In this document: positions 4,974 to 23,951 of the stretch, piece by piece
How the letters are laid out: every line of letters begins with the position of its first letter
Numbering within the stretch: the stretch's first letter is position 1
Virus record (IMG/VR): IMGVR_UViG_3300020477_000024
Span: 1 to 61,164 of that record
DNA: 61,164 nucleotides
Source: a virus
Taxonomy: Duplodnaviria > Caudoviricetes
Direction: 5' to 3' (one strand)
The notes under the pieces: generated by a model
The model's input: the letters and a program-made list of their open reading frames with translations, nothing else
The model's database searches: none
What the model was told of the DNA's origin: nothing
Translations under genes and position numbers: made by a program

Positions 4974-5393
4974 CTATGATTGGTTTGCCAAAATGTAAGT
5001 CTGATCGTTTCCTGAAGAATCCCTAATTTTAACTTTCAACTTGTTATCGGTACTATCAATAAACAGCACTCCACTAGAATTTGATAATGTGGGCAAATTT
5101 CCCGTTAAAGAAGAATTGATAACATGCGTTGTCATTGTTGAGTTTAACGCATATGTAGTAGAAGTTCCACTACCATCCTTTGATTGAACTTTTAATTTTC
5201 CGTCTGCGGAATCCGTATATAAAATTGCAGTCGAATTTGTTTGAGATCCAGAACTAGGTGCAGATGCCGAATGATTAACTGTAACAGTTGATGCATCTGC
5301 CGTTATAGTATTTAGTTTACTTATCAAACTATTCACCCTAGTCATGAATGTATTAAATGTGTCTGTTAAATTCAGACTAGTTATTGTTGCCAT
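4974..5393 (-). CDS. Small virion / fibre-associated protein
   Basis: 139 aa with N-terminal DTFNTF..RVN and an internal duplication (LYTDSADGKLKVQ / LFIDSTDNKLKVK). Confidence 0.7.
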   Translation of the reverse strand: MATITSLNLTDTFNTFMTRVNSLISKLNTITADASTVTVNHSASAPSSGSQTNSTAILYTDSADGKLKVQSKDGSGTSTTYALNSTMTTHVINSSLTGNLPTLSNSSGVLFIDSTDNKLKVKIRDSSGNDQTYILANQS

Positions 5394-5408
5394 TTTTATT
5401 TTTTTCTC

Positions 5409-6152
5409 CTATACTGATCTGGAATTTTCTATTTCACTCTTATCTACTCCACCTAATTCTCCAATAACATTGGAATGCCCTACTCTCTGAACCACAACAT
5501 CATCCTTAAATCTATAAGCATTCAATTTTCTATTAGAATACAAGTGTCTAATATCTTCTCTCGGATGTTCGCAATATGTAGAAGCGATGTACTCATCAGT
5601 AGTTATCAAATTGTTTTTAATTCCCGAAGAAAATAATTCTTTAGCAGAATCTTTTGTTACTATATACGCATGTGAATTATATGTATAACCAACCTTCTCT
5701 ATAATATCATCTACTTCTTCAGTCTCATACCCCTTCACCGGCCAACATCCCAAATAAAACAAATCACAATCATTGGTTTTCATAAAATTTGATGCAATAA
5801 ACAAACTTTCTCGAAAATCTCTGCCTACAAACTTTACATCATCTTCTAGGACTAAAGCAAACTGATAATTATCATAAATATGCTTCCAAATATTATAATG
5901 ACCGAGCAAATTGCATATTGATCCCATTTTCAAATCTCTTGAATACCAAAAATTGTTACTATCTTCCATCTTCCATGAATCGTAGGTAAAAAACCCTTCC
6001 GAATTCAAATCTTCCAAAGAAACGTTTTGATGATCTATCGCATCAAATACATATATATCAAATTCCTTCTGAAAGGGGGATAATAAATTGATAATAAAAT
6101 CCCTTCTCTCTACCAACCTAGTCAACGAAACACAATATATAGCGTCTATCAT
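5409..6152 (-). CDS. Glycosyltransferase family 25, procollagen galactosyltransferase (COLGALT)-like
   Basis: YCVSL.R..ERR, DAID, HYNIWK, LVLEDDV, DLFYLG, HAY and DEYIASTYCEHP motifs. Confidence 0.85.
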   Translation of the reverse strand: MIDAIYCVSLTRLVERRDFIINLLSPFQKEFDIYVFDAIDHQNVSLEDLNSEGFFTYDSWKMEDSNNFWYSRDLKMGSICNLLGHYNIWKHIYDNYQFALVLEDDVKFVGRDFRESLFIASNFMKTNDCDLFYLGCWPVKGYETEEVDDIIEKVGYTYNSHAYIVTKDSAKELFSSGIKNNLITTDEYIASTYCEHPREDIRHLYSNRKLNAYRFKDDVVVQRVGHSNVIGELGGVDKSEIENSRSV

Positions 6153-6164
6153 GATAATAACGAA

Positions 6165-6743
6165 TCATCTAATAGCATACAAATCATATTCTTCTTCCCA
6201 TATTATATAACCATTTTTTTCTAATAAATAAAGTATTGGTTGTTTTATCTCACCATTATAATAATTCTCTGTCGATTCCCAATGAGTCGTTTCCATTTTT
6301 ATTACTTTCGGCAAAACATCCCAACTATAATTGAGTACAATCGGTAATTCACAACCTTCAACATCAATTTTTAAAAAATCTATTTGTGTAATACTATATT
6401 TTTTGATAAGTGAATCTAAAGTCATAGTTTTAACTATGGTTTTTCTTTCAAAATCCTTCCATTGTGGATTTGGCACAAAACCATTTATTTCATTATTATA
6501 AGAACCAATGCCACGAACCCACTGTTTATTTATTTTTTCAGATAGTAAAGGATCGTAATAATAAAACTCAGTTTCACCATCATAAGTACTTATCGCAGAA
6601 TTTTCAAAAATAACATTCGGATGTGTTTCTAAATTGTTCAAATATTCACTAACTGGTTCAACAATAATACCATACCAACCATTTTTTGCTAATGGAAGTA
6701 ACGTATCAAAATCGCATGAACCAATTTCAATAAAAAAATTCAC
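6165..6743 (-). CDS. FkbM-family SAM-dependent methyltransferase
   Basis: FIEIGS, IVEP, NSAIS, TLDSL and IDFLKIDVEG motifs. Confidence 0.85.
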   Translation of the reverse strand: MNFFIEIGSCDFDTLLPLAKNGWYGIIVEPVSEYLNNLETHPNVIFENSAISTYDGETEFYYYDPLLSEKINKQWVRGIGSYNNEINGFVPNPQWKDFERKTIVKTMTLDSLIKKYSITQIDFLKIDVEGCELPIVLNYSWDVLPKVIKMETTHWESTENYYNGEIKQPILYLLEKNGYIIWEEEYDLYAIR

Positions 6744-6746
6744 TAA

Positions 6747-6950
6747 TTATCCCCCTAACAATTCACTCTCTTTCAAAGAAATAGTTTTAGTTTCATCCTT
6801 TTCTGCCCACCATTCAACTGGTATAAGTATTGATGCCAAACTATCAGTTGAAATGGATGAAATCTTTTCATTGAGTTCAGTTTCATTATTTGCTTCGATA
6901 ATACCTTCATGGTTATAAGTTGTTTCTAATATTACTTTATAAAGTGCCAT
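6747..6950 (-). CDS. Small hypothetical protein (DpnD/PcfM-like pattern)
   Basis: Likely start is MALYKV at 6950 with a GAGG RBS. Pattern YKV.LETT.....IEA. Confidence 0.65.
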   Translation of the reverse strand: MALYKVILETTYNHEGIIEANNETELNEKISSISTDSLASILIPVEWWAEKDETKTISLKESELLGG

Positions 6951-6964
6951 TTTTTCCTCTCTTT

Positions 6965-8983
6965 TTATTTTTTGTTGCAAAATGTTATAAGAACATATCT
7001 TGTACCTGACATAACTGCTCTTGCACCATGTTTGTGTGTAATTGTTGGATGAACTACGACTTCTCCAACTGACTTATCAACTAAATGATTTTGTCTTGGA
7101 AACCAAGTTCCCCCACCTGTATAGTCGTTGTTTAAACCAACAACAAAGGTATAATCAGACGCATCATGATGACACGACAAATCAGTTTGATAATTTTCTG
7201 ATTCTAAATCATACTTTACTATAAAAGATTCATTTTTCATATTACCCACAAATCCTTGTAATCCCCAAATAGAAGATACTACTGGATGTGCGTATTCGTC
7301 TAATATTGTATCCCATATATCACCATAACCAAAACTGCTCAATAAAATATCATGCGTAGGATAATTTACATGCCTATCTGTTGTCCATTGACCATATTGT
7401 TCTGCCTTTTCGATTAATTCACTACAAAACTCTTCATTCAGGAGAGGCCAACTATACAATTCAAGACCAGTTCCGATAGAATCAACATATAATTCCCATT
7501 GCTTTCCTCTTATTCTTTGATCTATATATTTATCTATATCTTCATTCATCACATCATCAATATTATTACTTTCAATAGTCGAAAATCTATCAGATCCTTT
7601 TCTCAAAAATTCAAAATCGTTTACATGAAACGTTCGTTCCACGTCTTCATTTTTTCCCTTTCCCGTTTCTATTAGAACATCCTTTAGTTTTATTTCATAT
7701 TTAAATTCTAAATCTGGATTTACCCAACCACTTGACCAAGTTCTAAATATACCAACACCATCTTCGAGTTTATCGTTATCAGACCAAGTTATTTCTCCTT
7801 CTTGAAAAACTCTAAAATCATACTCTATAGCACCACTAACATCAAATGGACTACGACCATACCACATAGTAATTTTCTCTGGATCTGAAAAATCCATATC
7901 ATATAAAGCACTTGATCTATCTAGCATGTTATAGTCAATAGACCAATTTCCATTATAAACCAGATCATTATATAACTCAACACATTTTTTAGGATGATGT
8001 TTGTTAATGACATATTCTCTGCCAATTGAATCGTGTTCCATAAACCAAGCATTCATTAACGCATGTTTGATACTTTCATTTTCTAAAGTACATCGTGCAA
8101 TTTTCGGATTCTCCGATTTATAATCACCCTGTTCCGTTGCAACCACATTTGCCCCACAACTCAGTGCTTCCAAATATACCAAGCCAGGTACATCCATCTT
8201 GGTAGTCATGGCAAATACCCTACATCTTCGATAGTAATCTATAAGTTCATCAAAAGGAATTGACTTATCCAACCACGTTATTCTTCCATCACTCTGACCA
8301 ATTTGATGTTTTAATGCTTCAACTTCATCTTTCTCATCTGGATTACCAATAACTACCAATTTCAATTTCAAATCATTACATGCCTTTGCAAGATAACGAT
8401 GTCCTTTTATGTTCTGAACCGCAGCTGCACATAATACAAAATCCTCTCTTTCAATAGAATCATCAATTGTCAAATAATCCGTATTGATTGGAACAGGAAC
8501 TGTTAAAATCTTATGCGATAAATGACTCCATTGTTCTTTTGCTTGATCTGTCTGTGCAACAGTTACTAATGATTGTTCAATGCATTTAGAATAAACATCA
8601 TAAAAGGCTGATCCTTTTTCTTCTAATAAAGGATTGTTATCATGGATATTTAAAATGTACGGTATACCCATCCTAATCATTCTCAAACATTGATACCAAA
8701 AACTACAATGTATAAAATCATAATCTTTTGCATTTTCTTGAGTTAATTCCCCATCAAACAACAAATCTACCTGATAACCCAATTTTTGCAAATAATCCAT
8801 ATGGTTGTAAATAACTCTACCTACAGCATTTATACTGCCCATTCCCCTTTCTTTACTTGTCGGATCTTGCCAAGAAGGATGTTTTAAATATAATATTTTC
8901 CTCTTTTCAGTATTTTGTACCCCTAACGGTTTCAATTCACCATTTACCAATTTCATAAATCTGTTATCATCTAATATTTTCAT
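6965..8983 (-). CDS. GT4 glycosyltransferase fused to a PLOD-type 2OG-Fe(II) lysyl hydroxylase domain
   Basis: N-terminal GT-B motifs (KGH, DVPGLVYLEALSCG). C-terminus WPLLNEEFCSELI..AEQYGQW...PTHDI...FIVKY...HHDAS...YTGGG..F...HP.ITHKHGA....GTRY matches the procollagen-lysine hydroxylase pattern. Confidence 0.85.
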   Translation of the reverse strand: MKILDDNRFMKLVNGELKPLGVQNTEKRKILYLKHPSWQDPTSKERGMGSINAVGRVIYNHMDYLQKLGYQVDLLFDGELTQENAKDYDFIHCSFWYQCLRMIRMGIPYILNIHDNNPLLEEKGSAFYDVYSKCIEQSLVTVAQTDQAKEQWSHLSHKILTVPVPINTDYLTIDDSIEREDFVLCAAAVQNIKGHRYLAKACNDLKLKLVVIGNPDEKDEVEALKHQIGQSDGRITWLDKSIPFDELIDYYRRCRVFAMTTKMDVPGLVYLEALSCGANVVATEQGDYKSENPKIARCTLENESIKHALMNAWFMEHDSIGREYVINKHHPKKCVELYNDLVYNGNWSIDYNMLDRSSALYDMDFSDPEKITMWYGRSPFDVSGAIEYDFRVFQEGEITWSDNDKLEDGVGIFRTWSSGWVNPDLEFKYEIKLKDVLIETGKGKNEDVERTFHVNDFEFLRKGSDRFSTIESNNIDDVMNEDIDKYIDQRIRGKQWELYVDSIGTGLELYSWPLLNEEFCSELIEKAEQYGQWTTDRHVNYPTHDILLSSFGYGDIWDTILDEYAHPVVSSIWGLQGFVGNMKNESFIVKYDLESENYQTDLSCHHDASDYTFVVGLNNDYTGGGTWFPRQNHLVDKSVGEVVVHPTITHKHGARAVMSGTRYVLITFCNKK

Positions 8984-8997
8984 TTATAAAAATCCTT

Positions 8998-9717
8998 TTA
9001 TATTGGTTCAGTCTGACTTCCACCCTGATCCAGTTGTACAATTGCATCTTCTTTTATAGAATATGCCTTCAATTTTCTCTCAATATTATATAAATTCCTC
9101 AAATCCTTTCTTGGATGTTCGTCATAACAAGTAGTTAAAAACTCATCAATCACTATCATATTACTTGTATAATTTGAATTCAATAAAATACGAATTGCTT
9201 CTGACTTAATAATATAGGCATGAGTAGTATATTTGAAAAACACTCTATTAACATATTTTGTAAATGAATCCCAATCATAACACGATCCTCCCAAATAAAA
9301 CAAATCATAATCATATTCATTTTTGAAATCGGAAAAAACATTTATCCAGTTATTATTTTTAATTTCAATATCATCTTCTAAAACTAAAATTTCGGAAAAC
9401 CCCATTTCATATGCCTTTTTCCATATTAAGTAATGACTAATACTACAACCCATTTCCCCTTTCGTAACTGGTCTATTCCAGAACTTGAAAATAACTTTTT
9501 TATTTATAACAGGAAAATAAGTCCAGTTTTGATCGGTTTTATTATTTTTATATTCATAAAAACCCGAAGCATAAAAATCTTCCCAATCTAATACCATTCC
9601 ATCAATGGCATCAAATACATATACTGGTGCAAAATCCATTTTTGATAATATTTCAATAACATTTTTTCTACGTTCTTCCATTCTTTCTAAACTTACACAA
9701 AATATAGCATCAACCAT
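8998..9717 (-). CDS. Glycosyltransferase family 25, COLGALT-like
   Basis: RPVTKGEMGCSISHYLIWK, LEDD, DLFYLG and DEFLTTCYDEHP motifs. Paralogue of 5409..6152. Confidence 0.88.
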   Translation of the reverse strand: MVDAIFCVSLERMEERRKNVIEILSKMDFAPVYVFDAIDGMVLDWEDFYASGFYEYKNNKTDQNWTYFPVINKKVIFKFWNRPVTKGEMGCSISHYLIWKKAYEMGFSEILVLEDDIEIKNNNWINVFSDFKNEYDYDLFYLGGSCYDWDSFTKYVNRVFFKYTTHAYIIKSEAIRILLNSNYTSNMIVIDEFLTTCYDEHPRKDLRNLYNIERKLKAYSIKEDAIVQLDQGGSQTEPI

Positions 9718-9729
9718 AATAAAAAGATG

Positions 9730-9975
9730 TTACTCCAATGGATTCTCCTCTGATATTTCTATAACAGAATTGGGTTTTACCCCATACCATTGAATTTCTT
9801 TGTGTCTCATATCCCAATCAAGACCCTCTTTTGTAGTACCAGAACCGAAACCCATACCATCTTTCAGATCTTTTGTTGCTTCATCAAGAGTTATCTTAGC
9901 AGAATTCAGATCCTCTGCTTCAATAGTTACTTCCTGATAAATAATCACCCCAACATCAAAACGAAATTTTGCCAT
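9730..9975 (-). CDS. Small hypothetical protein (DpnD/PcfM-like pattern)
   Basis: 81 aa, AAGGAG RBS, FRFDV......EVTIEAEDL..A. Confidence 0.7.
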   Translation of the reverse strand: MAKFRFDVGVIIYQEVTIEAEDLNSAKITLDEATKDLKDGMGFGSGTTKEGLDWDMRHKEIQWYGVKPNSVIEISEENPLE

Positions 9976-10012: not shown

Positions 10013-13000
10013 TTATGAATGTGATATACTTTGAGATTTAAATCCAATAACAGCTGAAGCCGTATTAGAACCATTATATGTTCCATCTCCTTTAAAAGAA
10101 GTTATAGTTGGAACAGTTGCGGTATTAAACGAAAAATTGAAAGTATGACTTGTATGATTTGACCAAGTACTTCCATCACTACCAGACGGTTTTACACCCT
10201 TCTGACCTTTTTGTCCTTTTTGACCTTTTTGACCAGAATCACCTGTTGCCCCTTTTGCTCCTTTACTTGAAGAAGGTGCAGGTTGTCCTTTTTCACCTTT
10301 ATCACCTTTGTCGCCAGGTGATCCATCACCAGCATTGGTAGCATTTTTTGTACCTTTATCACCTTTATCACCTTTATCACCTTTGTCGCCGGGATCTCCA
10401 TCACCAGCATTGGTAGCATTTTTTGTACCTTTATTTCCTTTATCACCTTTGTCGCCGGGATCACCTGTACCAGCATTGGTAGTATTTTTCGGGCCTTTAT
10501 CACCTTTATCACCTTTGTCGCCGGGATCACCTGTACCAAGATGTCCAGTATTTTTCGGGCCTTTATCACCTTTATTTCCTTTGTCGCCGGGAGCTCCTGT
10601 ACCAAGATTTCCCGAATTTTTACTTCCTTTATTTCCTTTATTACCCTTAGCACCAGCATCACCATCAAAACCTTTTACTCCAGCAAGTTCACTTCCATTA
10701 GCAGTATCATAAGCATAACTACCAGTTTTTTCACCAGCTGCATTTACTATTACAAAGTCGCCAGGAATTCCTTTGACCCCCTTCTCCGAGGTGTCGGCAT
10801 CTCTACCTTTAATTCCAGCAGTTGTTCTGCTATCCGATCCAACTACGAATTCTGTACGTCCAGTAATATTATCATTAGCATCAGTATGTACATATGGCCC
10901 ATGCTTACCTTTTAGACCCTTTTCTGAAGTGTCGGCATCTCTACCTTTAATTCCAGCAGTTGTTCTGCTATCCGATCCAACTACGAATTCTGTACGTCCA
11001 GTAATATTATCATTAGCATCAGTATGTACATATGGCCCATGCTTACCCTTCAAACCCTTTTCTGAAGTATCAGCATCACGACCCTTAATTCCAGCAGTTG
11101 TTGTGCTATCTGTGCCGACTACGAATTCTGTACGTCCAGTAATTGCATCATTAGCATCAGTATGTACATATGGCCCATGCTTACCCTTCAAACCCTTTTC
11201 TGAAGTATCAGCATCACGACCCTTAATTCCAGCAGTTGTTCTGCTATCCGATCCAACTACGAATTCTGTACGTCCAGTAATTGAATCATTAGCATCAGTA
11301 TGTACATATGGCCCATGCTTACCTTTTAGACCCTTCTCCGAGGTGTCGGCATCTCTACCTTTAATTCCAGCAGTTGTTGTGCTATCTGTGCCGACTACGA
11401 ATTCTGTACGTCCAGTAATTGCATCATTAGCATCAGTATGTACATATGGCCCATGCTTACCCTTCAAACCCTTTTCTGAAGTATCAGCATCACGACCCTT
11501 AATTCCAGCATCTTTAGTACTCCCTGCTTCATGCTCAACTCTTGCATTGAGTGTGCCATCTTGTTTAGTAGTAACAAACGGGCCATGATGACCCTTAATA
11601 CCTTTTTCTGAAGTGTCGGCATCACGACCCTTAATTCCAGCATCTTTAGTACCACCAGATTCATGCTCAACTCTTGAATTCAAAGTTCCATCTTGTTTAG
11701 TAGTAACAAACGGGCCATGATGACCCTTAATACCTTTTTCTGAAGTATCAGCATCTCTGCCTTTAATTCCAGAATCTTTAGTACCACCAGATTCATGCTC
11801 AACTCTTGAATCCAAAGTTCCATCAGATTTAGTAGTAACAAACGGGCCATGATGACCCTTGATACCCTTTTCTGAAGTATCAGCATCATGACCTTTAACA
11901 CCAGATTGCTTGGTTCCATCAGTACCAATATTTTCATGTTCAATTCTTGCATTGAGTGTGCCATCTGATTTAGTGGTAACGTATGGCCCATGATGACCCT
12001 TGATACCCTTTTCTGAAGTATCGGCATCTACACCCTTAACTCCTGCCAATCCACTTCTACCACCAAGTCCTAAAACTGCTGTAAATGTTTGTCCACCACC
12101 CTTTGCTGGAGCAGATATAGTCGGAACCGAAGAATAACCAGAACCAGAATTCAATACTTTTACATCAGTTACTTGTCCTGTATTATCTACAACCAAATGT
12201 CCTCTAAACCCAGAACCTCCACCACCAGTTGCTTCAATAATTTCATGATTTTGATAATCTGTACTATGAGAACCAGAAACAGTTACACTTCTAACTTTAT
12301 CTGGATCACCCGATTGTACATTATCTTGCCAATTTCCCTGAAAACCTTTAGTTCCTTTACTTCCTACACTTCCACCCTCGCCGGGATCTCCAGAAGCAGG
12401 TACTAATAAATTAATTTCACCCTTTCCACTAATCTCAGTACCATCAAGATTGAACATTCTTTTGCTTATGGTATTTGAACTTCCATCATATTTTATAGAT
12501 TCAAATCTTCCTTCATCAACCTTTGAGATATTATGAACAATTTGTTTTCCATCTTGTGTCCAAGTTATTCTAACTTCTGGATATGATGTAACAACATTGT
12601 TAGTAACACTATAGAAAATATTAGAATATATCCTCACTTCTTTATTTGCTGTACCAGAAACAACTGCCCAAGTTGAACCAGAAGTAGAAGAAGAATTGTA
12701 TGAACCAGAAGAATTTAAAACATCAACTGCAACTGTTACAGCACCTGTACTAGTTGTAATGAGTTTTATGACTGAAGAAGTGGATTCCCCACTTGCCAAT
12801 GTTTGTCTATCACCCTTAAAATGCCATTGAGTTTTACCAGAAGTTGTTGCACCATCAGCACCTTGCATACCTTTACTAATAGTTATAACCTTGTCAATTG
12901 TAACATTGCCAGAATAACTATGAGGAACTATACCATGAGTTTTGGCAAATGCGTTTAATATGGTTGCTCTGATCGTAAATGTTTCAGTTTCAGAAGTCCA

Positions 13001-16000
13001 ACTTCTATATGTTGAAACATCGTTTGTATTGAATGAATATGAACCATCATCCCTTGAAATCTGAAAAGTCAATCCACCTTGAGTTTTTCTGGAAATGGTA
13101 GTAGTACTATCCGTACTTGAAGGATTTTCGGTAACAGTAGCAGACTCACCGACAAGATGATATTGTACGTTTGTTTCTGATGCATCATCATACTTTACAC
13201 CAGCAAAGTAAACATCAGCATTTCCACCAGCATCAGCAGCCCAAGTATTACCAAAATCTGTACCATCTACTTTTTTTGTACCATCACCATTAGTAGGTAA
13301 TAGCACTGGATCATTGGTTAGTCTAAATTCTACTGCCTTTGACCCTGCTCTTGACCTATTAACATCTAAAACTTTTGCTAAAACGGTTGGTGTTGCAGTA
13401 TTACTAGAGTCTGCAACACCAAGACCATAACGTTCCGAAGTTGTAGAACCCAAAACTGCTTCAAGAATAAATTCGGTATGATCTTTGCTAGGATTCCAAG
13501 CAGAATCTTCTTCTAAAATAAAATATCTATGTGTTGCGTAACGGTTTGTGGTAGTTTCAGGCGTAGTTACTTTATTTTCACCAGCACTATCAGAAATCTG
13601 CACTTTCAAATTATCCGAAGTTGCACCATTAGATTTAACTCTAAAATAAATATAATCAGTAGCAGATGTATGAAAAGAATTTTTGGCAATGTAACCACCA
13701 TCATCCTGTCTTACACGAATTTCCAATTCACCCGTATATTTGCTATGACCTGAAGGATAACTTCCCAATTTAAAATCAAGTGGTACTCTGGTTCCTTGTG
13801 GATCGTCATCAGGAGCAAAATCACCTTTGGTATTTGTTGCAATTATAACTGGATCACGTTTTAAACGAAAATCTACTGCACTACCAACTCGACTTTTGCT
13901 AATAGTAAATTTTCTTGTTACAGTTACATCTTCTGTACTTGTTCCAGCAATCAATCCCCATACTTTTGCTTGGGCATTAGCAATAATTGCCTGTACCGTA
14001 ACTTCAGTGGCATCTGTATTCCAAATTGAACTGGAACTTTCGTTTTGAAATTGGTAGATCCCTTGATCGTCTATTACAAAACTGAAATTTTTAGTTGCGT
14101 TGGTAGTGGTTACATTACCCCCATCATCTGTTGTAGTTGTTCCCCAATTAGAAGCGGGATCGGGCCCATCATGGACAGTATCATTGACATTTGCTCTAAA
14201 TTGAACATGCTCGGATGTTCTTTGGTCAGCACCATTTATGATTACTTGGAACTGACCAGTAGTACCACTATAATCAATTGGATCACCAACTAAATTTTTT
14301 CGTCCTTCTGGGCCTGTAACGACAACCACAGGATCATTGGTCAAACGACCTTCAATGGCATTTTCACCACGTTTAGTTTTTGTAATATCCAGAACTTTTA
14401 TTAGTGAAATATCCTGATAAAGTTGTGAACCTTGTGTCCAAGTTGGAGCAGTACTATTAGCAGTAAATTCTTCACCATTGGCATTTGTTATCTCATTCCC
14501 ACTAGGATATAAAACACCAGAATTGGAAAAATCATCACCTGTTTCGTAATCGAGAATGACATATCTTTTTCCATTCTCTAAAGTTCCCGATCTTTTTGTT
14601 TCAATAATCCCTTGATTATATGCTTCTGAAGCAGATATAGTTGCCCTTATCGTAAACCTTTCTGTATCAGATGTCCAAGAAGAATTTTCAGATAACGTAT
14701 ATACACCCGTAGATGCAATTGAAACCTTTAAACCATTTCGAGTTGCCTGTGCATCATATGCATCTGATTGTACTGACCATTCTTCTCCAGCCGCACTATT
14801 ACTACTTGGATTTTGTCCTGTATTTGCTTGAGTTGCTTTGTAAATAGTAGCAGAATGTAATACATAATCATTTGGTTGATAGGCAGTACTATTATCCCAT
14901 GCTGGTGTATCATTTAAAATTTCATATGTAACAGCACTATCAGGAATAGATTGACCACCAACAACTGCCTGTGCTTCACCACTTTCATAATTGGGTTGTC
15001 CTGATGTACCAAATAGAGCAGTTGTTCCGTCTGCTCTTTTCAACCCTTGTGTATCAGTATCAATGTTAATTGGATCACGACTCAATCGCAAATCACCAGA
15101 ACTACGACCTTTGATATTTTTAGTAAACGGTTGATTGATAATCTTTTCTATAACCCTGCCATCAAACCGTTGAGAAGTTATAGTGAATTTTATATTAGCA
15201 GTTCTTTTATTCGTAGTCATTGCAGACGCATCTGCAACTTTTGCATTTTTAAAACTTATTGGATTGCTTCCACCAGAATTTGCATCCTCGTCAGTTATTG
15301 CACCAACAGTTATATTAGTTGCAGTTGTGGCAATTTTGAATTGACCATTGGCAAGTGTAGGATTTCCCTCAATAAAAGTTAATGGTCTATTTCCATCATA
15401 AACTTCAATAAATGTTCCACTACCATCATATGTTACAACCGCAGAAGATTCATCTGTTTGTAGTAATACAGACGGATTGGTAAGAAGAACCGTTACACCA
15501 TCAGTTCCGGCCTGTGTACCAAAAACAACTGTAGAATCTTCTGCCAAAACAACATCATTTCCAGTACCTTCATAGGTTTTAACTACATATCTTCTACGAA
15601 TAAATTTGGATGTCGGGGAAGTTGCGGTTGCGGTATGAGTGGTACTCTTTGCCTTGAATGCAGGATCTTTGGTTGTATTGCTAAAACCAGCATCTATTGC
15701 TGAAAATGTTGCACTATTTGTACCATCCGTAATAGTGTCTGAACCCGAAAAACTACCGACAATATCCGAAATCAAAAACTTAACATTACTTCCTGAAACT
15801 GTCTGGTAGACGATTGCATGATTATCATCGTCTTTGTAAATTTTAGTTCCAACTGTCCAAACAGATGGGGATGGTGCAGACGTAAGAGTTAATTCTTTGG
15901 TTTTTGCTATTTCATCTATTTGTGTATGAGCATTGACAAAACCTTGAGGTGTAGCAGTCAAAATATATTGACTTGGATCAGCAGAAGAACCACCAGCATT

Positions 16001-17014
16001 ATAACCAATTTGATAATCATCAGATTCTAATGATACATTTGTACTAACTCTATTTTTATCATACGTTATATTTCGATTGACAGTAACCGTATCACCATTT
16101 GATTTGGTTAATATAATCGGAATAGTAGCAACAATCGTATCAACACCATCACCACCGACAAAATCCCTTGCTGTTATCTTTGCTTGGTCAGGTGTTTGAG
16201 ATGTATCACTCTCTTTGTCTAAAGTAATACTTACGTTCGATTGACTTATAGTTCCTATGGTATATCTAGGTGTAATACTAGTATTGGTTGTATATTGTGC
16301 TAATTTTGCACCAACATAAACCTTAACATTGCTATCTGCATTATCAGCACCTAGAGTATCTGTAACAACACCCTGCGGAGTAGATGTAAAAGAAAAATAT
16401 TCTTTTTCTACAAAAGCATTAATTGCATCTTCACCAGCAGAAACATAAGAAAGAACCAATGGCATATTATCCGTTAGTGTCAGATTTGAGACTAACAGAT
16501 TGACTTTGAACCGATAGTAAACACTATTTCCACCAGCAGCTGCATATTTGGTAGAATCCAAAATCGAAAACAGCATAAATTGTGTAGCATCTGCTTTTTT
16601 ATAAAGTCTAAATGTACCAATAATTGAAGCAGATACTGTTCCGATTGTATCTAAAAAATTGTCTAATACAACACCATTATTATCCGTATTATCTAAATAA
16701 AGATAATGATCTCCAGATGGTGTATCAAAACCACCACTTCCACTAGCTGCAACATTAGAACCCAAACTTTGTTCAGTAGGATGTCCTGTTATCGTTGTAT
16801 TATGCCATTGATATTCAAATGTTACTCCACCAGTGGGTATTTGAACGTTCCCTAAATCTGATCTCGCAAGTTCATAACCACCTTTTGTACTACCATCATG
16901 AAACCGTATTGCTTCATCTCCACTATTTGTCTGCATAGTGAATTCACCTTGCTTACCAGTGTAAGCAAGGTTTTGATCTTTAGTACCCCGTTTAACTTTG
17001 AATGTTATGGACAT
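10013..17014 (-). CDS. Giant tail fibre with tandem repeats and C-terminal collagen-like region
   Basis: 2333 aa. N-terminal KRGT...G..GE....HDGST.GG fibre motif, a CBM5/12-like segment (WDNSTAYQPNDYVLH...YKA), repeated RL..DP domains, DADTSEKG repeats and G-X-K runs. Confidence 0.88.
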   Translation of the reverse strand: MSITFKVKRGTKDQNLAYTGKQGEFTMQTNSGDEAIRFHDGSTKGGYELARSDLGNVQIPTGGVTFEYQWHNTTITGHPTEQSLGSNVAASGSGGFDTPSGDHYLYLDNTDNNGVVLDNFLDTIGTVSASIIGTFRLYKKADATQFMLFSILDSTKYAAAGGNSVYYRFKVNLLVSNLTLTDNMPLVLSYVSAGEDAINAFVEKEYFSFTSTPQGVVTDTLGADNADSNVKVYVGAKLAQYTTNTSITPRYTIGTISQSNVSITLDKESDTSQTPDQAKITARDFVGGDGVDTIVATIPIILTKSNGDTVTVNRNITYDKNRVSTNVSLESDDYQIGYNAGGSSADPSQYILTATPQGFVNAHTQIDEIAKTKELTLTSAPSPSVWTVGTKIYKDDDNHAIVYQTVSGSNVKFLISDIVGSFSGSDTITDGTNSATFSAIDAGFSNTTKDPAFKAKSTTHTATATSPTSKFIRRRYVVKTYEGTGNDVVLAEDSTVVFGTQAGTDGVTVLLTNPSVLLQTDESSAVVTYDGSGTFIEVYDGNRPLTFIEGNPTLANGQFKIATTATNITVGAITDEDANSGGSNPISFKNAKVADASAMTTNKRTANIKFTITSQRFDGRVIEKIINQPFTKNIKGRSSGDLRLSRDPINIDTDTQGLKRADGTTALFGTSGQPNYESGEAQAVVGGQSIPDSAVTYEILNDTPAWDNSTAYQPNDYVLHSATIYKATQANTGQNPSSNSAAGEEWSVQSDAYDAQATRNGLKVSIASTGVYTLSENSSWTSDTERFTIRATISASEAYNQGIIETKRSGTLENGKRYVILDYETGDDFSNSGVLYPSGNEITNANGEEFTANSTAPTWTQGSQLYQDISLIKVLDITKTKRGENAIEGRLTNDPVVVVTGPEGRKNLVGDPIDYSGTTGQFQVIINGADQRTSEHVQFRANVNDTVHDGPDPASNWGTTTTDDGGNVTTTNATKNFSFVIDDQGIYQFQNESSSSIWNTDATEVTVQAIIANAQAKVWGLIAGTSTEDVTVTRKFTISKSRVGSAVDFRLKRDPVIIATNTKGDFAPDDDPQGTRVPLDFKLGSYPSGHSKYTGELEIRVRQDDGGYIAKNSFHTSATDYIYFRVKSNGATSDNLKVQISDSAGENKVTTPETTTNRYATHRYFILEEDSAWNPSKDHTEFILEAVLGSTTSERYGLGVADSSNTATPTVLAKVLDVNRSRAGSKAVEFRLTNDPVLLPTNGDGTKKVDGTDFGNTWAADAGGNADVYFAGVKYDDASETNVQYHLVGESATVTENPSSTDSTTTISRKTQGGLTFQISRDDGSYSFNTNDVSTYRSWTSETETFTIRATILNAFAKTHGIVPHSYSGNVTIDKVITISKGMQGADGATTSGKTQWHFKGDRQTLASGESTSSVIKLITTSTGAVTVAVDVLNSSGSYNSSSTSGSTWAVVSGTANKEVRIYSNIFYSVTNNVVTSYPEVRITWTQDGKQIVHNISKVDEGRFESIKYDGSSNTISKRMFNLDGTEISGKGEINLLVPASGDPGEGGSVGSKGTKGFQGNWQDNVQSGDPDKVRSVTVSGSHSTDYQNHEIIEATGGGGSGFRGHLVVDNTGQVTDVKVLNSGSGYSSVPTISAPAKGGGQTFTAVLGLGGRSGLAGVKGVDADTSEKGIKGHHGPYVTTKSDGTLNARIEHENIGTDGTKQSGVKGHDADTSEKGIKGHHGPFVTTKSDGTLDSRVEHESGGTKDSGIKGRDADTSEKGIKGHHGPFVTTKQDGTLNSRVEHESGGTKDAGIKGRDADTSEKGIKGHHGPFVTTKQDGTLNARVEHEAGSTKDAGIKGRDADTSEKGLKGKHGPYVHTDANDAITGRTEFVVGTDSTTTAGIKGRDADTSEKGLKGKHGPYVHTDANDSITGRTEFVVGSDSRTTAGIKGRDADTSEKGLKGKHGPYVHTDANDAITGRTEFVVGTDSTTTAGIKGRDADTSEKGLKGKHGPYVHTDANDNITGRTEFVVGSDSRTTAGIKGRDADTSEKGLKGKHGPYVHTDANDNITGRTEFVVGSDSRTTAGIKGRDADTSEKGVKGIPGDFVIVNAAGEKTGSYAYDTANGSELAGVKGFDGDAGAKGNKGNKGSKNSGNLGTGAPGDKGNKGDKGPKNTGHLGTGDPGDKGDKGDKGPKNTTNAGTGDPGDKGDKGNKGTKNATNAGDGDPGDKGDKGDKGDKGTKNATNAGDGSPGDKGDKGEKGQPAPSSSKGAKGATGDSGQKGQKGQKGQKGVKPSGSDGSTWSNHTSHTFNFSFNTATVPTITSFKGDGTYNGSNTASAVIGFKSQSISHS
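10195..10680 (-). repeat. Interrupted collagen-like Gly-X-Y repeat, Lys in the Y position
   Basis: GDKGDKGDKG, GNKGNKG and GQKGQKGQKG runs, in units of about 60 nt. Confidence 0.9.
10680..12045 (-). repeat. Coding tandem repeat, 10 units of about 132-141 nt
   Basis: DADTSEKG occurs 10 times. A 138-nt period is seen (10861 vs 10999), with two unit types. Confidence 0.92.
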
Positions 17015-17023
17015 ATTCTATCC

Positions 17024-17827
17024 TCATATGATACGTTTTTTTGCTACCCAACCCAACATTTTCTTTGCCTTTCTATTATCCAAACATATCCTCTCGACCT
17101 CATTTTTCTTTTTAGGAAAATAAATAGGATTTGTATGTAGACAACCATATTTGTTTACTAATTGATTTAATGAAACTTCTTCTCCAGTTCCTATATTAAA
17201 AATTTCATTTTTTCCTTTATGTAATGCTAAAACATTTGCCTCTACAACATCATCAATATGAACATAATCTCTTGTAGTTTCTCCTGTACCATAAATTCTT
17301 GGTTCTGGATTTTTGCGAAGAATGTAATATATTCCTTTTTTGGCATCCTCACCCCAAACATTAGCATATCTTAAAATTGTATATGATATTTCTGATAATT
17401 TAATATATTTTTCAGCAACCAATTTACTTAATCCATATGGTGAAATCGGATTAGGCAAATCAGTTTCTAAAACGGGTAAATTTTCAGGATTTCCATAACA
17501 AGCACCACCAGAAGATGCATAAATTATCTTTTTGACATCAAACATCTTACAAACCTGTAAAATTTTCAATGTCGCAAGTATATTCTGTTTAGCATCATAT
17601 TCTGGATTTAACAATGCTTTTCTAACATCAGATTGGGCGGCATGATGACTGATAACATCTATACCATTTCCCGATAACAAATTTTGCAAGTCGGGTATAT
17701 ACCTATCACTACAAATATCTATTTCCAAACCATTATTTACTTCATATACATTATGACCTAATTCTTTATATCGTTTTACAACCCGACTTCCAATAAAACC
17801 CATATGCCCCGTAACTAATATATTCAT
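17024..17827 (-). CDS. galE: NAD-dependent epimerase, UDP-glucose 4-epimerase-like (extended SDR)
   Basis: VTGHMGFIG, HHAAQ, ASSGGACYG, SPYGLSK (YxxxK), LRYANV and RDYVHIDD motifs. Confidence 0.8.
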   Translation of the reverse strand: MNILVTGHMGFIGSRVVKRYKELGHNVYEVNNGLEIDICSDRYIPDLQNLLSGNGIDVISHHAAQSDVRKALLNPEYDAKQNILATLKILQVCKMFDVKKIIYASSGGACYGNPENLPVLETDLPNPISPYGLSKLVAEKYIKLSEISYTILRYANVWGEDAKKGIYYILRKNPEPRIYGTGETTRDYVHIDDVVEANVLALHKGKNEIFNIGTGEEVSLNQLVNKYGCLHTNPIYFPKKKNEVERICLDNRKAKKMLGWVAKKRII

Positions 17828-17843
17828 AATAAATTTATACTCC

Positions 17844-20800
17844 TTAAACCCTTCTCCCTGTTAAAATAACTACTGCTACCATTCTCTTTCCATCACTATG
17901 ACCAGCAGATAGTGTTCCAGCAGTACTCTTGAATCTAACAGTACATCCAGTGTTATTAGTAGTATTTAGTGGTGTTACTTTACCATCGTTCCCTCTTAAA
18001 ATTTCTACATCACCATCCGCAAGTTGTAAAATTGTAGACTGTGTTGTAGAATTTTTAACTTCAGTTAAAAATGCTGTTGCTTCTTCAACAACAAAATTAG
18101 TTGGTATTTCTTCTATCGTATTTGCTACAGAACCAAAATCAGTATTAGTGATTCCTGTTACATTAGAAATAACAGTTTTAGTTTGCATTGGTTTTAACGA
18201 ATCGTCTTTATAATTCGGTATAACCTTCAGATTTCTGATCTTAACGGGCATAGAGTAATTACTTGCCGTCATATTAATTTTTAATTGTAAAATTGCAAAA
18301 TCAGAAATATTGTCCAGACTATATACCATTTTTTTATATTCTGGAAAATCTGCATCAAAAGTAGTACCAACTTGTGATAAAGATGACCATATAACTGCAT
18401 CTTTGGATACAATATCAGTAGCAAAATGTGCAGATGATACCGTTTGATTATAACCTCTGGTAACAGTCAATCCCGACCCCGTACCTGTTACGAGCATTTG
18501 TTCTTCACCTATACTAATAACATCACCAATAGTGAACAATTCATTTTCTACTAAATTTACAGTAGTAGCACTTGAACTAATATCAGTCTGTAATTTATCA
18601 GTAAATACCGAATCAAAGGTTGTCTGTGAAGATGATTCCATAGTTTTAGCATAAACATTTATAGCATTTCCTTTTGACAACAAAGCATCAAAGACAACAA
18701 AAACTGAATTTGCACTTTCTTCCAATTCTACTTTTCGACTGATATAATTGGACGATGATGCCAAATGTGATACAATTAAGGTATTAGCAGAACTAATATC
18801 AAAAATTGGGGATAATCTATCATTACTTGTATTTCCTGACATTGTTAATTTCAAAACAGCATCAGTAGTTAAAGTTCTTGGTTGAGTATACGGTATATTC
18901 GTATTCACATCTACACTATCAGTCGTTGATAATGCCGTACTATCAGATTCTACCCAACTTAAACTAGTACCATCAGGAACAAATTGTTTTGCGTTATATC
19001 GAATAATATCTGCTCTTCGTCTGGCATTTTTTACAGTTACATTATTTTCGTTCTGAGCATATCCAGAACTACCCAAAGTAACTAGGTTAGAACCACCCAT
19101 CGAATATCTATCTGCTGTTAAACCACTTGACATAACAGTGTGGTCGTCAACCGTAACACCCCTTGCTGTAACCTTTAACTGAGCAGTAGTAGTTCCACCA
19201 GAAACTGCTACAACATCATCAGTTTCATAACCATATCCACCAAAAATAACTTCAGGTGTACCAGTTATAGCACCACCTCCACCAACTGAAATTTTAACAC
19301 GCAATCCAGTTCCATTACCAGTTCCACCACTTGCACCACTCACATTAGTAGTTGCTTCACCAATACCTGTTGCAGAAGAAGCAGTGTAACCAGCACCATT
19401 GTTACTACCATTAACAGGTGCATCTGTAACTGCACCTAAATGCAAACCTTTCAACCTCTTAACTTCGTATACACCATCATTAGCAACTACAACATCAGTA
19501 CCAGAAGAAACACCTATAACATGATCTCCCACATTCCATCCACCAGATTCTGTTGCGATTGACATTGTTTTCTTGGTATTGTCAAAAGTTATCACTCTTC
19601 CATAAGGAACTGTATAAACATTGTCATTTTCTGGACTAAATGCAGATGCTCTATTATATACAATTTCCCCTGCTGTAAATGTCAATTCTCCCGTAACAAA
19701 TAAATCATGTTCAGTACGACCCTGAATGTTACTAAAATTGACCGTATCACCAGCACTAAATCCATGTCCTTCATGATCTACCACTAAAGTTGCATCTGAA
19801 TTGCTTGACCACAACTGTGTTTTCAGAGGATTTGGGTTTAAAACAGGATTGCTAAGTGTAGACTTAATAATTGCATCATCAGGATACGCATTGAATTTAG
19901 CACGATAGAGAGAAAATCTCAAAATCTCATCGGTAATTTTTTGACCACCGATAAAGAGATTTCCAATTCCCGTACCCTTTGAACCTTTGTTCTGTTCAGT
20001 TTTCAGAGTTTGAATTTTATACTCAACGGAAGGTGTTACTATACCTATGGCATATTTCCCCCGTTTAAGATAAATCGTTTCGTCAAATGTAAACGTAACC
20101 GCAGTACCTGTTGAAAATGCAACAAAATCAGTTGGAATCTTAGAAACTATACTATAAGGCAATACTTTATTGCTTGGTTTCCCATTTTCCATTTTTCTAA
20201 TCTGAACTGTTACAGCACGATCAAATAAATCTTCTGCGGTAAAATATAGATCCAATTTGGTAATACATGTTTCCTCAAAAATCTCAAATTCTTGGAACAT
20301 TGACTCATTGGTCTGGTCATCCCATGATAAATCATATGGTTTGGTTAAATAACCCTCATCATCGAATAACCCAACTGCATGATAGTAACCTTCTGCATAA
20401 TTATCATTTCCACTAATAACAATTTTTTTGCTACCAGTTGTAAACTTAGTAGAACCAACACCTTCGTCTGAATTTGGAATGATATAAGTTTTTGAAAATT
20501 TTCCATTATTATCAGTATATAATGAACCAGTAGGTGTCAAATAAGTACTAATTTCAATTCCATCAAATTTAACTGATGTAATTGCACAATTAGGTTTTAG
20601 ACCATATGCATTAATCGTAATCGTTTTGCTCCTAATATAAGGAACATAATTTCCCTCGACTGTTTTATCATTTATCTCTTTTCCAGTTACATTATAGTAA
20701 TTGGGTGATTTATCCAATTCATTATAATTCATATCTAATTTGGGATCAGCAATATGACTGTCTTTGACACCATACCATTCTGTTTCCCATTCATTCCAAA

Positions 20801-23800: not shown

Positions 23801-23951
23801 GCTTATAGATCTGATCTTGTAAAATGGTTTGTGCTTGTGTTAATTCTCTTGCTTGAACCGCAAATTTCGGTTTAAACAAAATACGATGATACCCCTTAGT
23901 TTCATCAAAATCATCGTAATATGGTTGAATATTATAATCTTTTGTTGGCAT
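17844..23951 (-). CDS. Large virion structural protein (DUF4815 / VrlC-like)
   Basis: PYYDDFD....YHRILFKP..AVQARELTQ.Q.ILQ.Q and APGADR motifs typical of this T4-like protein. Confidence 0.85.
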   Translation of the reverse strand: MPTKDYNIQPYYDDFDETKGYHRILFKPKFAVQARELTQAQTILQDQIYKHSTYENGESISSGQINIYTNIAYVSLQTDLTSSETATSIVGKVITNVQNGTGVKAKIVAVAPKNITNLESLTVYVAYLDNTTTSSTFSTNDYLYEVTDGTTISSTAWNRVGLLSTYTTPATHVGSGSIAQVESGIYYINGFATYVPNQTIILDKYTTSPSYKIGFDVSETTATSSDDTSLNDNAVISNNYQAPGADRHKIQLTLAKRSLTVNSTEGFVEVCEVVKGSINLKNSTSDSKERIVVSGFDYEMRENLSALTDVNGLTGISASGNGNKLSFGVSSGIGKIDGKEVRLKEKTYLTIDKPRTSITKSSTTINAGAELGNYVITDGNLTQQADADTFASIVNFAPASGAMYPLVHFAKTTGSASGSGSFIGTARIRGIERDGLDFKIYLFDIQLKTGEIFSEVSALHRWSSVGQSYASTTKICDLKTDRSKNTREISGEDVALNTLRETKKNALLHEMPYTGIESVSGTLSFSRVRRTFSANAVTSGATKTVTISATNQSFVDTTSVLVYGRDNNISGGPNVLFSSSDLTITGADTDTLTVSNSNFIATESYTVVATVKIATATRASRDLSQQYDALNEKKDVQKTVISLSKTNVHPYSWKVYMSSAFNVVPQVSTATDITSRYTLDTGQRDDYIDFGQIRLKDNQPFPSGRVLIVFWYYGSGAGIYTNAQSYPVNDAQTSNNTTYGNVPFVSNADGGTTYRLSDVPIYTSVNTGKKYRLNDCIDLRPVKNDQSGNDTFNSGGSNGMAVPDKATLSMTGIVQYYGRIDKIYLGADGTLRVKSGVASSQPVIPDNPSGGIPLYNVKLLPYTYDLHDIVVQPLFDDGQRDTDFDAISSLEKSAKDYDLNVGRIRRNTFSDPFVGHNFADVTDKDFSASIDMQKGELRPRYKVESVPLVTHSRVNHTTPADVTTLTVGEYNGTAKNVVTLPYTHLAELQNLNYNAERTLRNTDAVTYNGVVYIKEWDTFKSTKSRPMIKNRKGDFDSIPYIDDGFNAQGTIWNEWETEWYGVKDSHIADPKLDMNYNELDKSPNYYNVTGKEINDKTVEGNYVPYIRSKTITINAYGLKPNCAITSVKFDGIEISTYLTPTGSLYTDNNGKFSKTYIIPNSDEGVGSTKFTTGSKKIVISGNDNYAEGYYHAVGLFDDEGYLTKPYDLSWDDQTNESMFQEFEIFEETCITKLDLYFTAEDLFDRAVTVQIRKMENGKPSNKVLPYSIVSKIPTDFVAFSTGTAVTFTFDETIYLKRGKYAIGIVTPSVEYKIQTLKTEQNKGSKGTGIGNLFIGGQKITDEILRFSLYRAKFNAYPDDAIIKSTLSNPVLNPNPLKTQLWSSNSDATLVVDHEGHGFSAGDTVNFSNIQGRTEHDLFVTGELTFTAGEIVYNRASAFSPENDNVYTVPYGRVITFDNTKKTMSIATESGGWNVGDHVIGVSSGTDVVVANDGVYEVKRLKGLHLGAVTDAPVNGSNNGAGYTASSATGIGEATTNVSGASGGTGNGTGLRVKISVGGGGAITGTPEVIFGGYGYETDDVVAVSGGTTTAQLKVTARGVTVDDHTVMSSGLTADRYSMGGSNLVTLGSSGYAQNENNVTVKNARRRADIIRYNAKQFVPDGTSLSWVESDSTALSTTDSVDVNTNIPYTQPRTLTTDAVLKLTMSGNTSNDRLSPIFDISSANTLIVSHLASSSNYISRKVELEESANSVFVVFDALLSKGNAINVYAKTMESSSQTTFDSVFTDKLQTDISSSATTVNLVENELFTIGDVISIGEEQMLVTGTGSGLTVTRGYNQTVSSAHFATDIVSKDAVIWSSLSQVGTTFDADFPEYKKMVYSLDNISDFAILQLKINMTASNYSMPVKIRNLKVIPNYKDDSLKPMQTKTVISNVTGITNTDFGSVANTIEEIPTNFVVEEATAFLTEVKNSTTQSTILQLADGDVEILRGNDGKVTPLNTTNNTGCTVRFKSTAGTLSAGHSDGKRMVAVVILTGRRV

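Follow-up and report, generated by a model that had tools for sequence, protein, structure and literature searches.

Here we describe a phage protein in which a glycosyltransferase (GT) of family GT4 is joined to a lysyl hydroxylase (LH) of the PLOD type. It is encoded in a window of 61,164 bases comprising the whole of IMG/VR virus record IMGVR_UViG_3300020477_000024, which is a genome fragment only, with an estimated completeness of 34%. The gene (6965..8983, minus strand) is open over 672 amino acids, and its product, P0001, carries a third domain, a beta-sandwich, between the two enzymes. We consider it probable, if well short of certain, that this three-domain enzyme belongs to a phage gene cassette for the hydroxylation and subsequent O-glycosylation of lysines in the collagen-like fibre protein encoded beside it. 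The fusion and its parts are listed below, with the evidence for each in brackets.

6965..8983, minus strand: GT4 / beta-sandwich / PLOD-type lysyl hydroxylase fusion, 672 aa (open reading frame, Pfam, PDB sequence match, AlphaFold model, Foldseek)
6968..7537, minus strand: PLOD-type lysyl hydroxylase domain with the DSBH (double-stranded beta-helix) fold, residues ~483-672 (LH3 and L230 matches, Foldseek, residue map)
7628..7906, minus strand: Ig/FN3-like beta-sandwich domain, residues ~360-452 (AlphaFold model, structure search)
7955..8932, minus strand: GT4 glycosyltransferase domain of the GT-B fold, spanning residues ~18-343 and carrying K193-G194 and D264-x7-E272 (Pfam, Foldseek, conservation)
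8933..8983, minus strand: conserved N-terminal tail, residues 1-17, a predicted GT25 docking peptide (conservation, complex model)

The C-terminal domain is of the PLOD type by sequence, by fold and by its catalytic residues. An earlier note on this DNA had pointed to a PLOD-like stretch at about 6965-7460 (residues ~508-672), and this span coincides with the match that HMMER returns against human LH3 among PDB sequences (residues 508-670, E 2.4e-19). All of the motifs that it listed are present, namely WPLLNEEFCSELIEKAEQYGQW from residue 512, PTHDI within 541-546, FIVKY at 587-591, HHDAS at 605-609 and GTRYVLITF from 660. With full-length P0001 as query, HMMER also matched the LH domain of mimivirus L230 (E 1.4e-16), and the domain searched alone gave E values of 1.7e-20 for LH3 and 1e-17 for L230. 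Matches of this strength greatly exceed chance and single out PLOD-type enzymes. Pfam assigned nothing above threshold to the C-terminal part of P0001 and gave merely a sub-threshold OGFOD2-like match, so the likeness to PLOD is something other than a generic 2-oxoglutarate (2OG) oxygenase signal. Structure prediction and superposition on LH3, which the note had named as a check, agree with this assignment: in Foldseek searches the domain matches LH3 with E 1e-18 and superposes on the crystal structure of the L230 LH domain (6ax7_B) with a TMt of 0.83 and an rmsd of 1.7 Å over 195 columns at 28% identity. The DSBH fold is accompanied by the LH-specific N-terminal helices, and the predicted local distance difference test score (pLDDT) exceeds 90 across most of the domain. 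In the alignment, the Fe(II) triad H605, D607 and H652 corresponds to H825, D827 and H877 of L230, and the 2OG ligands Y591 and R662 to Y814 and R887; the roles of these L230 residues, and of those in its dimer, are as given in the available part of PMC5802723. The triad residues are retained in 44, 44 and 43 of the 47 rows, respectively, and the 2OG ligands in 45 and 43, the other rows being gapped. By alignment alone, I648 occupies the position of the L230 dimer-lock leucine L873 (I, L or V in 35/47 rows), and W573, F578 and Y611 those of the aromatic pocket residues Y798, Y801 and Y831. When 151 LH domains are placed in a FastTree phylogeny, those of the window's family group together (support 97), closer to the GT4/GT25 forms of viruses and bacteria than to the animal-type ones; the tree was used unrooted and carries no claim about a donor. 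Lysine 5-hydroxylation at X-K-G, the site used by collagen lysyl hydroxylases, would be the activity expected of the phage domain from its sequence.

At the other end of the protein, the earlier note had recognised a GT4 domain with a D-x7-E motif, and the profile matches bear this out. PF13692 and PF00534 both score above their cut-offs (50.8 bits against 27 and 48.4 bits against 26.4, respectively) and PF13439 falls slightly under its own (24.9 against 28.5). Foldseek places the N-terminal domain with GlgM (6tvp), MshA (3c48), BshA (3mbo) and the alpha-1,2-glucosyltransferase tll1591 (7fga), at TMt values of 0.56-0.68. K193, D264 and E272 are retained in 11, 12 and 11 of 13 rows, the latter two forming the D-x7-E motif. 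GT4 enzymes are classed in CAZy as retaining and GT25 enzymes as inverting; alpha transfer would be expected of this GT-B domain from its family. The conserved tail that precedes it (residues 1-17) has a mean identity to P0001 of 0.62, against 0.22 for the linker at 18-30 and 0.71 for the GT4 core.

An AlphaFold2 model of P0001 (alignment of 47 sequences, mean pLDDT 86) resolves the chain into the GT-B part, extending to ~343, an all-beta domain at ~360-452, a low-confidence linker at 465-480 and the DSBH at ~483-672. The two domains of the earlier note's fusion are therefore both present, but the protein has three, as an Ig/FN3-like sandwich stands between them. This sandwich has eight strands, with pLDDT above 90 in the AlphaFold model and 85 when it is folded alone. 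A structure search aimed at its function returned generic Ig/FN3-like matches only, the best Z score of 6.9 being in the common-fold range. That the middle domain is a decayed GT25 was rejected on an hhalign probability of 0.1 against the GT25 part of the aligned triple fusions described below and on the all-beta sandwich fold; Pfam finds no match to PF01755 (GT25) in P0001.

P0001 would work in the manner of LH3 and L230 but lies outside their architecture, as it contains neither the PLOD-type GT-A domain nor the GT-A-like accessory domain. Human LH3 (PLOD3; 6fxk, 6teu, 8zgc) likewise has a C-terminal LH domain, in which the Fe and 2OG ligands are identical, and P0001 repeats the LH3 order of N-terminal glycosyltransferase, non-catalytic middle domain and C-terminal hydroxylase. 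However, LH3 has a GT-A glycosyltransferase (PF25342) and a GT-A-like middle domain, whereas P0001 has a GT4/GT-B domain and an Ig/FN3-like sandwich. Pfam does not find PF25342 in P0001 at E<=0.01, yet the family is strong in the relatives P0047, P0048 and P0112; the pairing of hydroxylase and glycosyltransferase, with GT-B at the N-terminus, thus stands apart from the one found in animals and mimivirus as an independent solution, as the earlier note had supposed in calling it convergent. LH3 acts in the endoplasmic reticulum, whereas the phage-encoded protein would act in the bacterial cytoplasm. LH3 also partners with the GT25 enzyme COLGALT1, in a complex that has been solved (8zgc), and P0001 is encoded beside COLGALT1-like GT25 genes. 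The second known system is that of mimivirus, whose L230 combines an LH domain, the best structural match of P0001, with a hydroxylysine (Hyl) glucosyltransferase. Mimivirus has an amoeba as its host, whereas the window belongs to a T4-like tailed phage. According to the available part of PMC9546862, mimivirus encodes both collagen-like proteins and enzymes for their modification, and L230 and the Gal-Hyl glucosyltransferase R699 have PLOD-type GT-A domains, unlike the GT4 of P0001.

The fusion gene belongs to a series of genes running from 17827 to 4974, all on the minus strand and separated by intergenic gaps of 9-37 bp except for a single gap of 221 bp. In order, these encode a GalE-like epimerase, a 2333-aa fibre protein, an 81-aa protein, a GT25 enzyme (GT25a), the fusion, an FkbM methyltransferase, a second GT25 enzyme (GT25b) and further structural proteins.

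17024..17827, minus strand: NAD-dependent sugar epimerase, GalE-like, 267 aa (PF01370, E 1.7e-42)
10013..17014, minus strand: collagen-like fibre protein, 2333 aa (tail-fibre PHROGs and a weak Collagen Pfam match)
10190..12391, minus strand: G-X-K-rich repeat region, fibre residues 1542-2275 (GIKGHHGP and GLKGKHGP units, (GDK)n blocks)
9730..9975, minus strand: 81-aa protein, with an 80-aa homologue at the same position in the related locus L002 (conserved between fibre gene and enzymes)
8998..9717, minus strand: GT25a, COLGALT1-like glycosyltransferase, 239 aa (PF01755, 78.7 bits)
6165..6743, minus strand: FkbM-family methyltransferase, 192 aa, directly downstream of the fusion (PF05050, 68 bits; TIGR01444 above cut-off)
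5409..6152, minus strand: GT25b, COLGALT1-like glycosyltransferase, 247 aa, syntenic (PF01755, 46.5 bits)

The fibre gene, which encodes the proposed substrate, ends 1030 bp upstream of the fusion gene. Its product contains 89 G-X-Y triplets in runs of at least three, and lysine occupies the Y position in 44 of them while standing outside the eight commonest residues at X. K-G dipeptides number 66 where 19 are expected, and no such excess is seen in four other large proteins of the contig. Both of the substrate motifs that the earlier note had put forward, (GDK)n and GIKG, occur in this protein. Within the gene, 10190-12391 is made up of tandem repeats with units of ~44-46 aa (GIKGRDADTSEKGIKGHHGP...) and of 22 aa (GDPGDKGDKGDKGPKNT...), and the identical terminator-like hairpins found every 132 nt at 11580-11858 are a by-product of these repeats. 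On the far side of the epimerase gene, and adjoining it, 17844-23951 (minus strand) encodes a 2035-aa structural protein (phrog_358, DUF4815) with 8 K-G dipeptides against 8.9 expected, that is, no enrichment.

Both GT25 enzymes score above the PF01755 cut-off of 24 bits, and the best solved relative of each is human procollagen galactosyltransferase 1 (COLGALT1, also GLT25D1), a collagen Hyl beta-galactosyltransferase. For GT25a the match has an E value of 3.4e-22, far better than those to bacterial GT25 (1.8e-5) or to the GT25-like mimivirus protein R655 (5.6e-6); for GT25b it is 1e-13. The similarity extends across the whole catalytic GT25 domain of COLGALT1 in both cases, but the phage enzymes are single-domain proteins that do not have its N-terminal GT-A domain. 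The EDD and DYD motifs of GT25a align with EDD and DWD of COLGALT1, and GT25b has DCD at the DWD position. This second DXD motif, D461-D463 in a residue numbering that we deduced from an offset, is essential in GLT25D1 according to the available part of PMC3244457. The two flanking GT25 genes, like the beta-sandwich at ~360-452 and the conserved tail, are features that the earlier note did not describe. The best NCBIfam model for the epimerase is GalE (TIGR01179, E 1.7e-37), at 129 bits and thus below the 262-bit cut-off, and a supply of UDP-Gal is a possible function. The 81-aa protein has no family match in Pfam, PHROG and NCBIfam scans and could be a fibre chaperone or adaptor. Neither PF13640 (P4H-type oxygenase) nor PF25342 (PLOD-type GT) was found in the contig, negatives to which we attach little weight because the contig is ~34% of a genome and because the PF25342 search was blank in every control genome as well.

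From the observed domain identities, catalytic residues, folds and recurring gene order we infer a set of activities, a substrate, the sugars and the sequence in which they are added. The LH domain, using Fe(II), 2-oxoglutarate and O2, would convert Y-position lysines of G-X-K-G to 5-hydroxylysine, acting in the host cytoplasm before the fibre chain has folded. A COLGALT1-like GT25, either GT25a or GT25b, would then add the first sugar, probably beta-Gal from UDP-Gal provided by way of the GalE-like epimerase. The GT4 domain would add an alpha-linked second sugar, as the earlier note had suggested, taking the role of the LH3 GT-A domain and of mimivirus R699, and the FkbM methyltransferase may cap or methylate the resulting glycan. 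Indirect support for this part of the GT4 comes from the COLGALT1-like GT25 genes on either side of the fusion gene, which are candidates for adding the first sugar, and from the many viral relatives that have GT4, GT25 and LH in a single chain.

Since relatives exist in which a GT25 is fused to GT4 and LH (see below), we modelled the binding of GT25b to P0001. The complex scored 0.81, 0.82 and 0.81 in three runs, whereas the best of three controls scored 0.00; the score mark applied was reached by 58/80 solved complexes and by 2/110 mismatched pairs, figures that are rough because our own alignments were used. At least 72% of contacts were shared between the runs, with a partner pLDDT of at least 83. 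The predicted interface pairs residues 1-17 of P0001, the sole part of the protein to take part in it, with GT25b residues 21-54 and 83-91, in which strand 32-39 is central. The model supports docking of the P0001 tail to GT25b. Memory of the solved LH3/COLGALT1 complex seems an unlikely source of this prediction, because the tail is without counterpart in LH3. The tail probably serves to dock a GT25, in which case the separate proteins would be a non-covalent counterpart of the GT4-GT25-LH single chains.

A search of 5.8 billion proteins yielded eight full-length relatives of P0001, with 49-72% identity and all from marine metagenomes, together with two proteins that have the GT4 and sandwich domains without LH and one with another N-terminus; the next matches were animal PLODs. 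The exact architecture is therefore as unusual as the earlier note had judged it, but fusions of GT4 with LH as such are common in viral metagenomes. No relative was confirmed in a first scan of IMG/VR with a GT4-specific pattern (alignment A1). A metagenome scan for fusion relatives gave two loci. The first of these, L002, encodes a collagen-like C-terminus with GQKGQKG, followed by an 80-aa gene, the fusion gene, FkbM, GT25 and a sulfotransferase; the second, L003, encodes the fusion, FkbM and GT25. The GT25 that follows FkbM is 59% identical to GT25b in L003, and the copy in L002 resembles GT25a. As this gene order is shared by the two loci, the cassette is conserved. The sulfotransferase gene (PF03567; L002:3998-4669) lies after the GT25 gene and points tentatively to sulfation of the glycan or of Hyl in some phages.

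The wider LH family is large. A full HMMER scan with residues 340-672 returned 1881 representatives at E<=1e-3 and 511 at E<=1e-10, and local domain mapping of the best 150, with a Pfam check on 10 proteins, distinguished four architectures: GT25-LH of ~440 aa, GT4-GT25-LH of ~740-860 aa, animal-type GT_PLOD-LH, and GT25-GT_PLOD-LH. In aligned triple fusions of the GT4-GT25-LH type (alignment A4), a GT25 match is present in 24/24 and a match to a GT4 model in 20/24. Viral triple fusions (P0015, P0029, P0044, P0073 and others) contain the same three enzyme types as the window, with a related LH (hhalign E 4.3e-72 against that of P0001), and occupy the same place after a G-X-K-rich gene. Their domain order mirrors that of LH3, in which the last-acting glycosyltransferase is N-terminal and the hydroxylase C-terminal. 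The window differs from them in having its GT25s as two separate genes, a sandwich in the place of GT25, a distant GT4 and FkbM as an extra conserved partner. P0001 contains no GT25 domain and so falls outside the triple-fusion family; it represents a separate solution on the same theme, with what is probably another GT4 lineage, GT25 as separate genes and an added sandwich. A fission form also exists, L004, in which GT25-LH is accompanied by a separate GT4 gene. On this 9.7-kb contig (L004:6188-9287), a GT25-LH gene (459 aa) is found with a 2OG-oxygenase-like gene (205 aa), a GT4 gene of the triple-fusion type (369 aa) and other oxygenase-like genes; the contig was binned to a Flavobacteriaceae metagenome-assembled genome, but it looks phage-like and may be mis-binned. 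Among isolated phages, tblastn of the triple fusion P0044 found GT25-LH or GT4 parts only.

The triple fusions are frequently linked to collagen-like genes. IMG/VR holds 341 stretches that encode relatives of the triple fusion, and in the best 80 loci (L042-L121) all are full length. A collagen-like open reading frame (ORF) of at least five triplets is present in 57 of these 80 loci and has at least three lysines at Y in 56 of the 57. In 50/57 loci, lysine occurs 0-1 times at X and up to 279 times at Y; the best ORFs of L071 and L044 have up to 25 at X. Clustering of the enzymes at 90% identity gave 38 clusters from 79 loci, 30 of them with at least 3 kb of upstream sequence, and in 26 of these 30 a G-X-K-rich collagen-like ORF on the same strand ends 26-1938 bp before the enzyme gene. 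The collagen-like genes of L042-L121 can be huge (up to 687 G-X-Y triplets, with lysine the commonest Y residue), with a triple fusion of 740-820 aa within 2 kb, as at L061:2923-12313, where portal and minor-coat genes flank the pair. This viral module of a collagen-like gene with a triple fusion appears to be uncharacterised.

A related arrangement occurs in an isolated cyanophage, Synechococcus phage S-CAM9 (KU686205.1; L041:1911-10770). Its tail-fibre gene contains a collagen run of 59 triplets (177 aa) rich in GQK and GEK, with lysine at Y in 22/65 triplets, and downstream of it are two 2OG-Fe(II) oxygenase genes and then a 614-aa GT25-x-LH gene, S820908_031, annotated 'hypothetical protein'. 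GT25-LH fusions correspond to PHROG phrog_61. S-CAM9 is therefore a culturable system that carries both a collagen-run fibre and a GT25-x-LH gene.

Several observations nevertheless weigh against the pathway proposed above. The motif of the C-terminal lobe of GT4 enzymes is usually E-x7-E, and in P0001 its first residue is Asp (D264-x7-E272). The GT4 of P0001 is also no more than a distant relative of its counterpart in the triple fusions (probability 72.7% and E 3.2e-5 by hhalign over 171 columns), so the function of the triple fusions is not simply transferable to it. In addition, the RMQV stretch, which the available part of PMC3244457 describes as required for ColGalT activity, is not retained in GT25a, where unrelated residues align with it. 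The absence of RMQV would suit a version of the same pathway, on the same substrate, in which the order of the sugars is reversed: the GT4 would act first on Hyl, as L230 does in forming Glc-Hyl, and the GT25s would extend the glycan or serve other sites. It is the GT4 that is physically fused to the hydroxylase in P0001, the fused GT of L230 acts directly on Hyl (PMC9546862, in the part available), and two GT25 paralogues would be well suited to extension steps. However, the match of GT25 to the Hyl-galactosyltransferase COLGALT1 is ~17 orders of magnitude above that to bacterial GT25, and in the triple fusions it is GT25 that stands beside LH, with GT4 at the far end, an order like that of LH3. 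We therefore regard addition of the GT4 sugar first as unlikely.

A further difficulty is that GT25 is also a family of lipopolysaccharide (LPS)-core enzymes, and the Pfam label of PF01755 is that of an LPS biosynthesis family. The nearest named NCBIfam models for the GT4 domain concern glycogen, mycothiol, exopolysaccharide and protein-glycan lipid carriers, and FkbM methyltransferases and sulfotransferases (the latter as in L002) are common in polysaccharide clusters. It could be, then, that the hydroxylase modifies a protein while the GT4, GT25, epimerase and methyltransferase remodel host surface polysaccharide or LPS in the course of infection, the fusion coupling unrelated activities. 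Such a division of labour is hard to reconcile with the recurrence of GT4, GT25 and LH within one polypeptide, with the position of the enzymes directly after G-X-K-rich fibre genes in 26/30 clusters and with GT25s that are far closer to COLGALT1 than to the bacterial LPS enzymes. Pfam and PHROG scans of the cassette, moreover, showed neither a membrane segment nor a lipid-carrier enzyme. Overall we find remodelling of a surface polysaccharide distinctly improbable.

The remaining points against modification of the fibre concern the substrate. The G-X-Y runs of the window's fibre are short, at 3-8 triplets, which leaves some doubt about a true triple helix, and lysine at Y beside D/E stabilises collagen helices without hydroxylation, which gives the enrichment of lysine at Y an alternative possible cause. 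In four of the 30 viral clusters (15 loci), from another phage lineage whose layout runs from terminase-portal to sheath, a collagen-like ORF is absent within 10 kb. LH-type genes are also present in bacteria, including Thiothrix, Leucothrix, Granulosicoccaceae and Aliishimia, and a K-rich collagen-like ORF was found in the flanks of 0/36 bacterial loci (L005-L040). A direct GT4-LH fusion of 556 aa, without GT25 or sandwich, is encoded on an Aliishimia sp. chromosome (L007:9992-11662) and likewise in L009, L010 and L013; these bacterial fusions lie amid housekeeping genes with no collagen-like gene nearby. Given the bacterial loci, the substrates of LH-type domains are different ones, or are encoded far away, in some genomes. 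By extension, the domain in P0001 might target another virion protein or a protein of the host, and its location beside the fibre gene would then reflect no more than a position in the late structural module. We hold this to be very improbable, because the neighbouring protein is strongly enriched in X-K-G with almost no lysine at X, and because LH3 and L230, the nearest relatives to have been characterised, act as lysyl hydroxylases on X-K-G sites (available part of PMC5802723).

We also looked for signs of how the cassette is expressed. Short RNA contigs (150-230 nt, 0-1 mismatch) from three marine metatranscriptome studies match GT25b/FkbM, GT25a, the 3' end of the fusion gene and the fibre gene. 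With shares of 0.03-0.08, and with DNA carry-over possible, these are a weak hint that the cassette is transcribed, and those parts without RNA contig cover carry no meaning. The 221-bp gap between the fusion and FkbM genes (6744-6964), the sole long gap in the cassette, is spanned by one metatranscriptome contig (6728-6878) and contains no convincing promoter or terminator. A scan of the cassette as a whole found 60 promoter-like sites against 59.8 in shuffled sequence and 11 terminator-like sites against 5.7±2.7, which is no clear excess. One further contig from an RNA library (run X4, depth 17) falls within 4986-5538 of the window and joins 5499-5538 to 4986-5170, 553 nt back; this jump could be due to a rearranged relative or to an assembly chimera.

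The remainder of the contig encodes a T4-like baseplate and replication module. For the baseplate wedge protein, identity is 42% with Methylophilales phage Melnitz, 37% with Pelagibacter myophages and 35% with cyanophages, and from this module and these relatives the host is a marine bacterium, without closer placement. Among isolated phages, megablast with 23 kb of the window found no close relative, and tblastn of P0001 found no record that spans at least 80% of the protein. Two auxiliary genes of types typical of marine T4-like phages are present on the minus strand, one for a Mom-like DNA modification protein (52336-53094, phrog_1384) and one that matches phrog_249 ('porphyrin biosynthesis', ATPase-like; 57887-59095).

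Our literature search turned up no publication that describes a PLOD-type hydroxylase of a phage, nor any on fusions of the GT4-LH and GT25-LH types, most subscription journals being outside its reach. The nearest published work is that on mimivirus L230 and R699 (PMC9546862, PMC5802723) and a prediction from 2010 that collagen-like proteins are modified by bacterial dioxygenases belonging to other families (available part of PMC2938197). We tentatively propose, as a broader reading that we hold with somewhat less than even confidence, that tailed phages possess a complete collagen-type pathway for their own fibres. It would comprise hydroxylation, COLGALT-like galactosylation, addition of an alpha-linked sugar by a GT4 that non-homologously replaces the glucosyltransferase of LH3 and R699, and methylation, the enzymes being united in one chain or docked through a tail. 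The same proposal holds that this viral and bacterial pool may have been the source of, or an exchange partner for, the PLOD and COLGALT enzymes of giant viruses and animals. Glycosylation of collagen through Hyl is regarded as a trait of animals, and mimivirus is, to our knowledge, the one viral case that has been characterised. If the cassette functions as inferred here, a collagen-type pathway would be widespread in marine tailed phages, judging from the 341 IMG/VR stretches with the sister architecture, and would operate with a different glycosyltransferase fold, providing a natural case of non-homologous replacement inside a conserved pathway. The enzymes would also offer a compact, bacterially expressed means of producing hydroxylated and glycosylated recombinant collagens, a use for which mimivirus enzymes of this type have been named (PMC9546862, in the part available). 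For the phages themselves, it would mean a new post-translational modification on their fibres, with a bearing on host recognition and virion stability.

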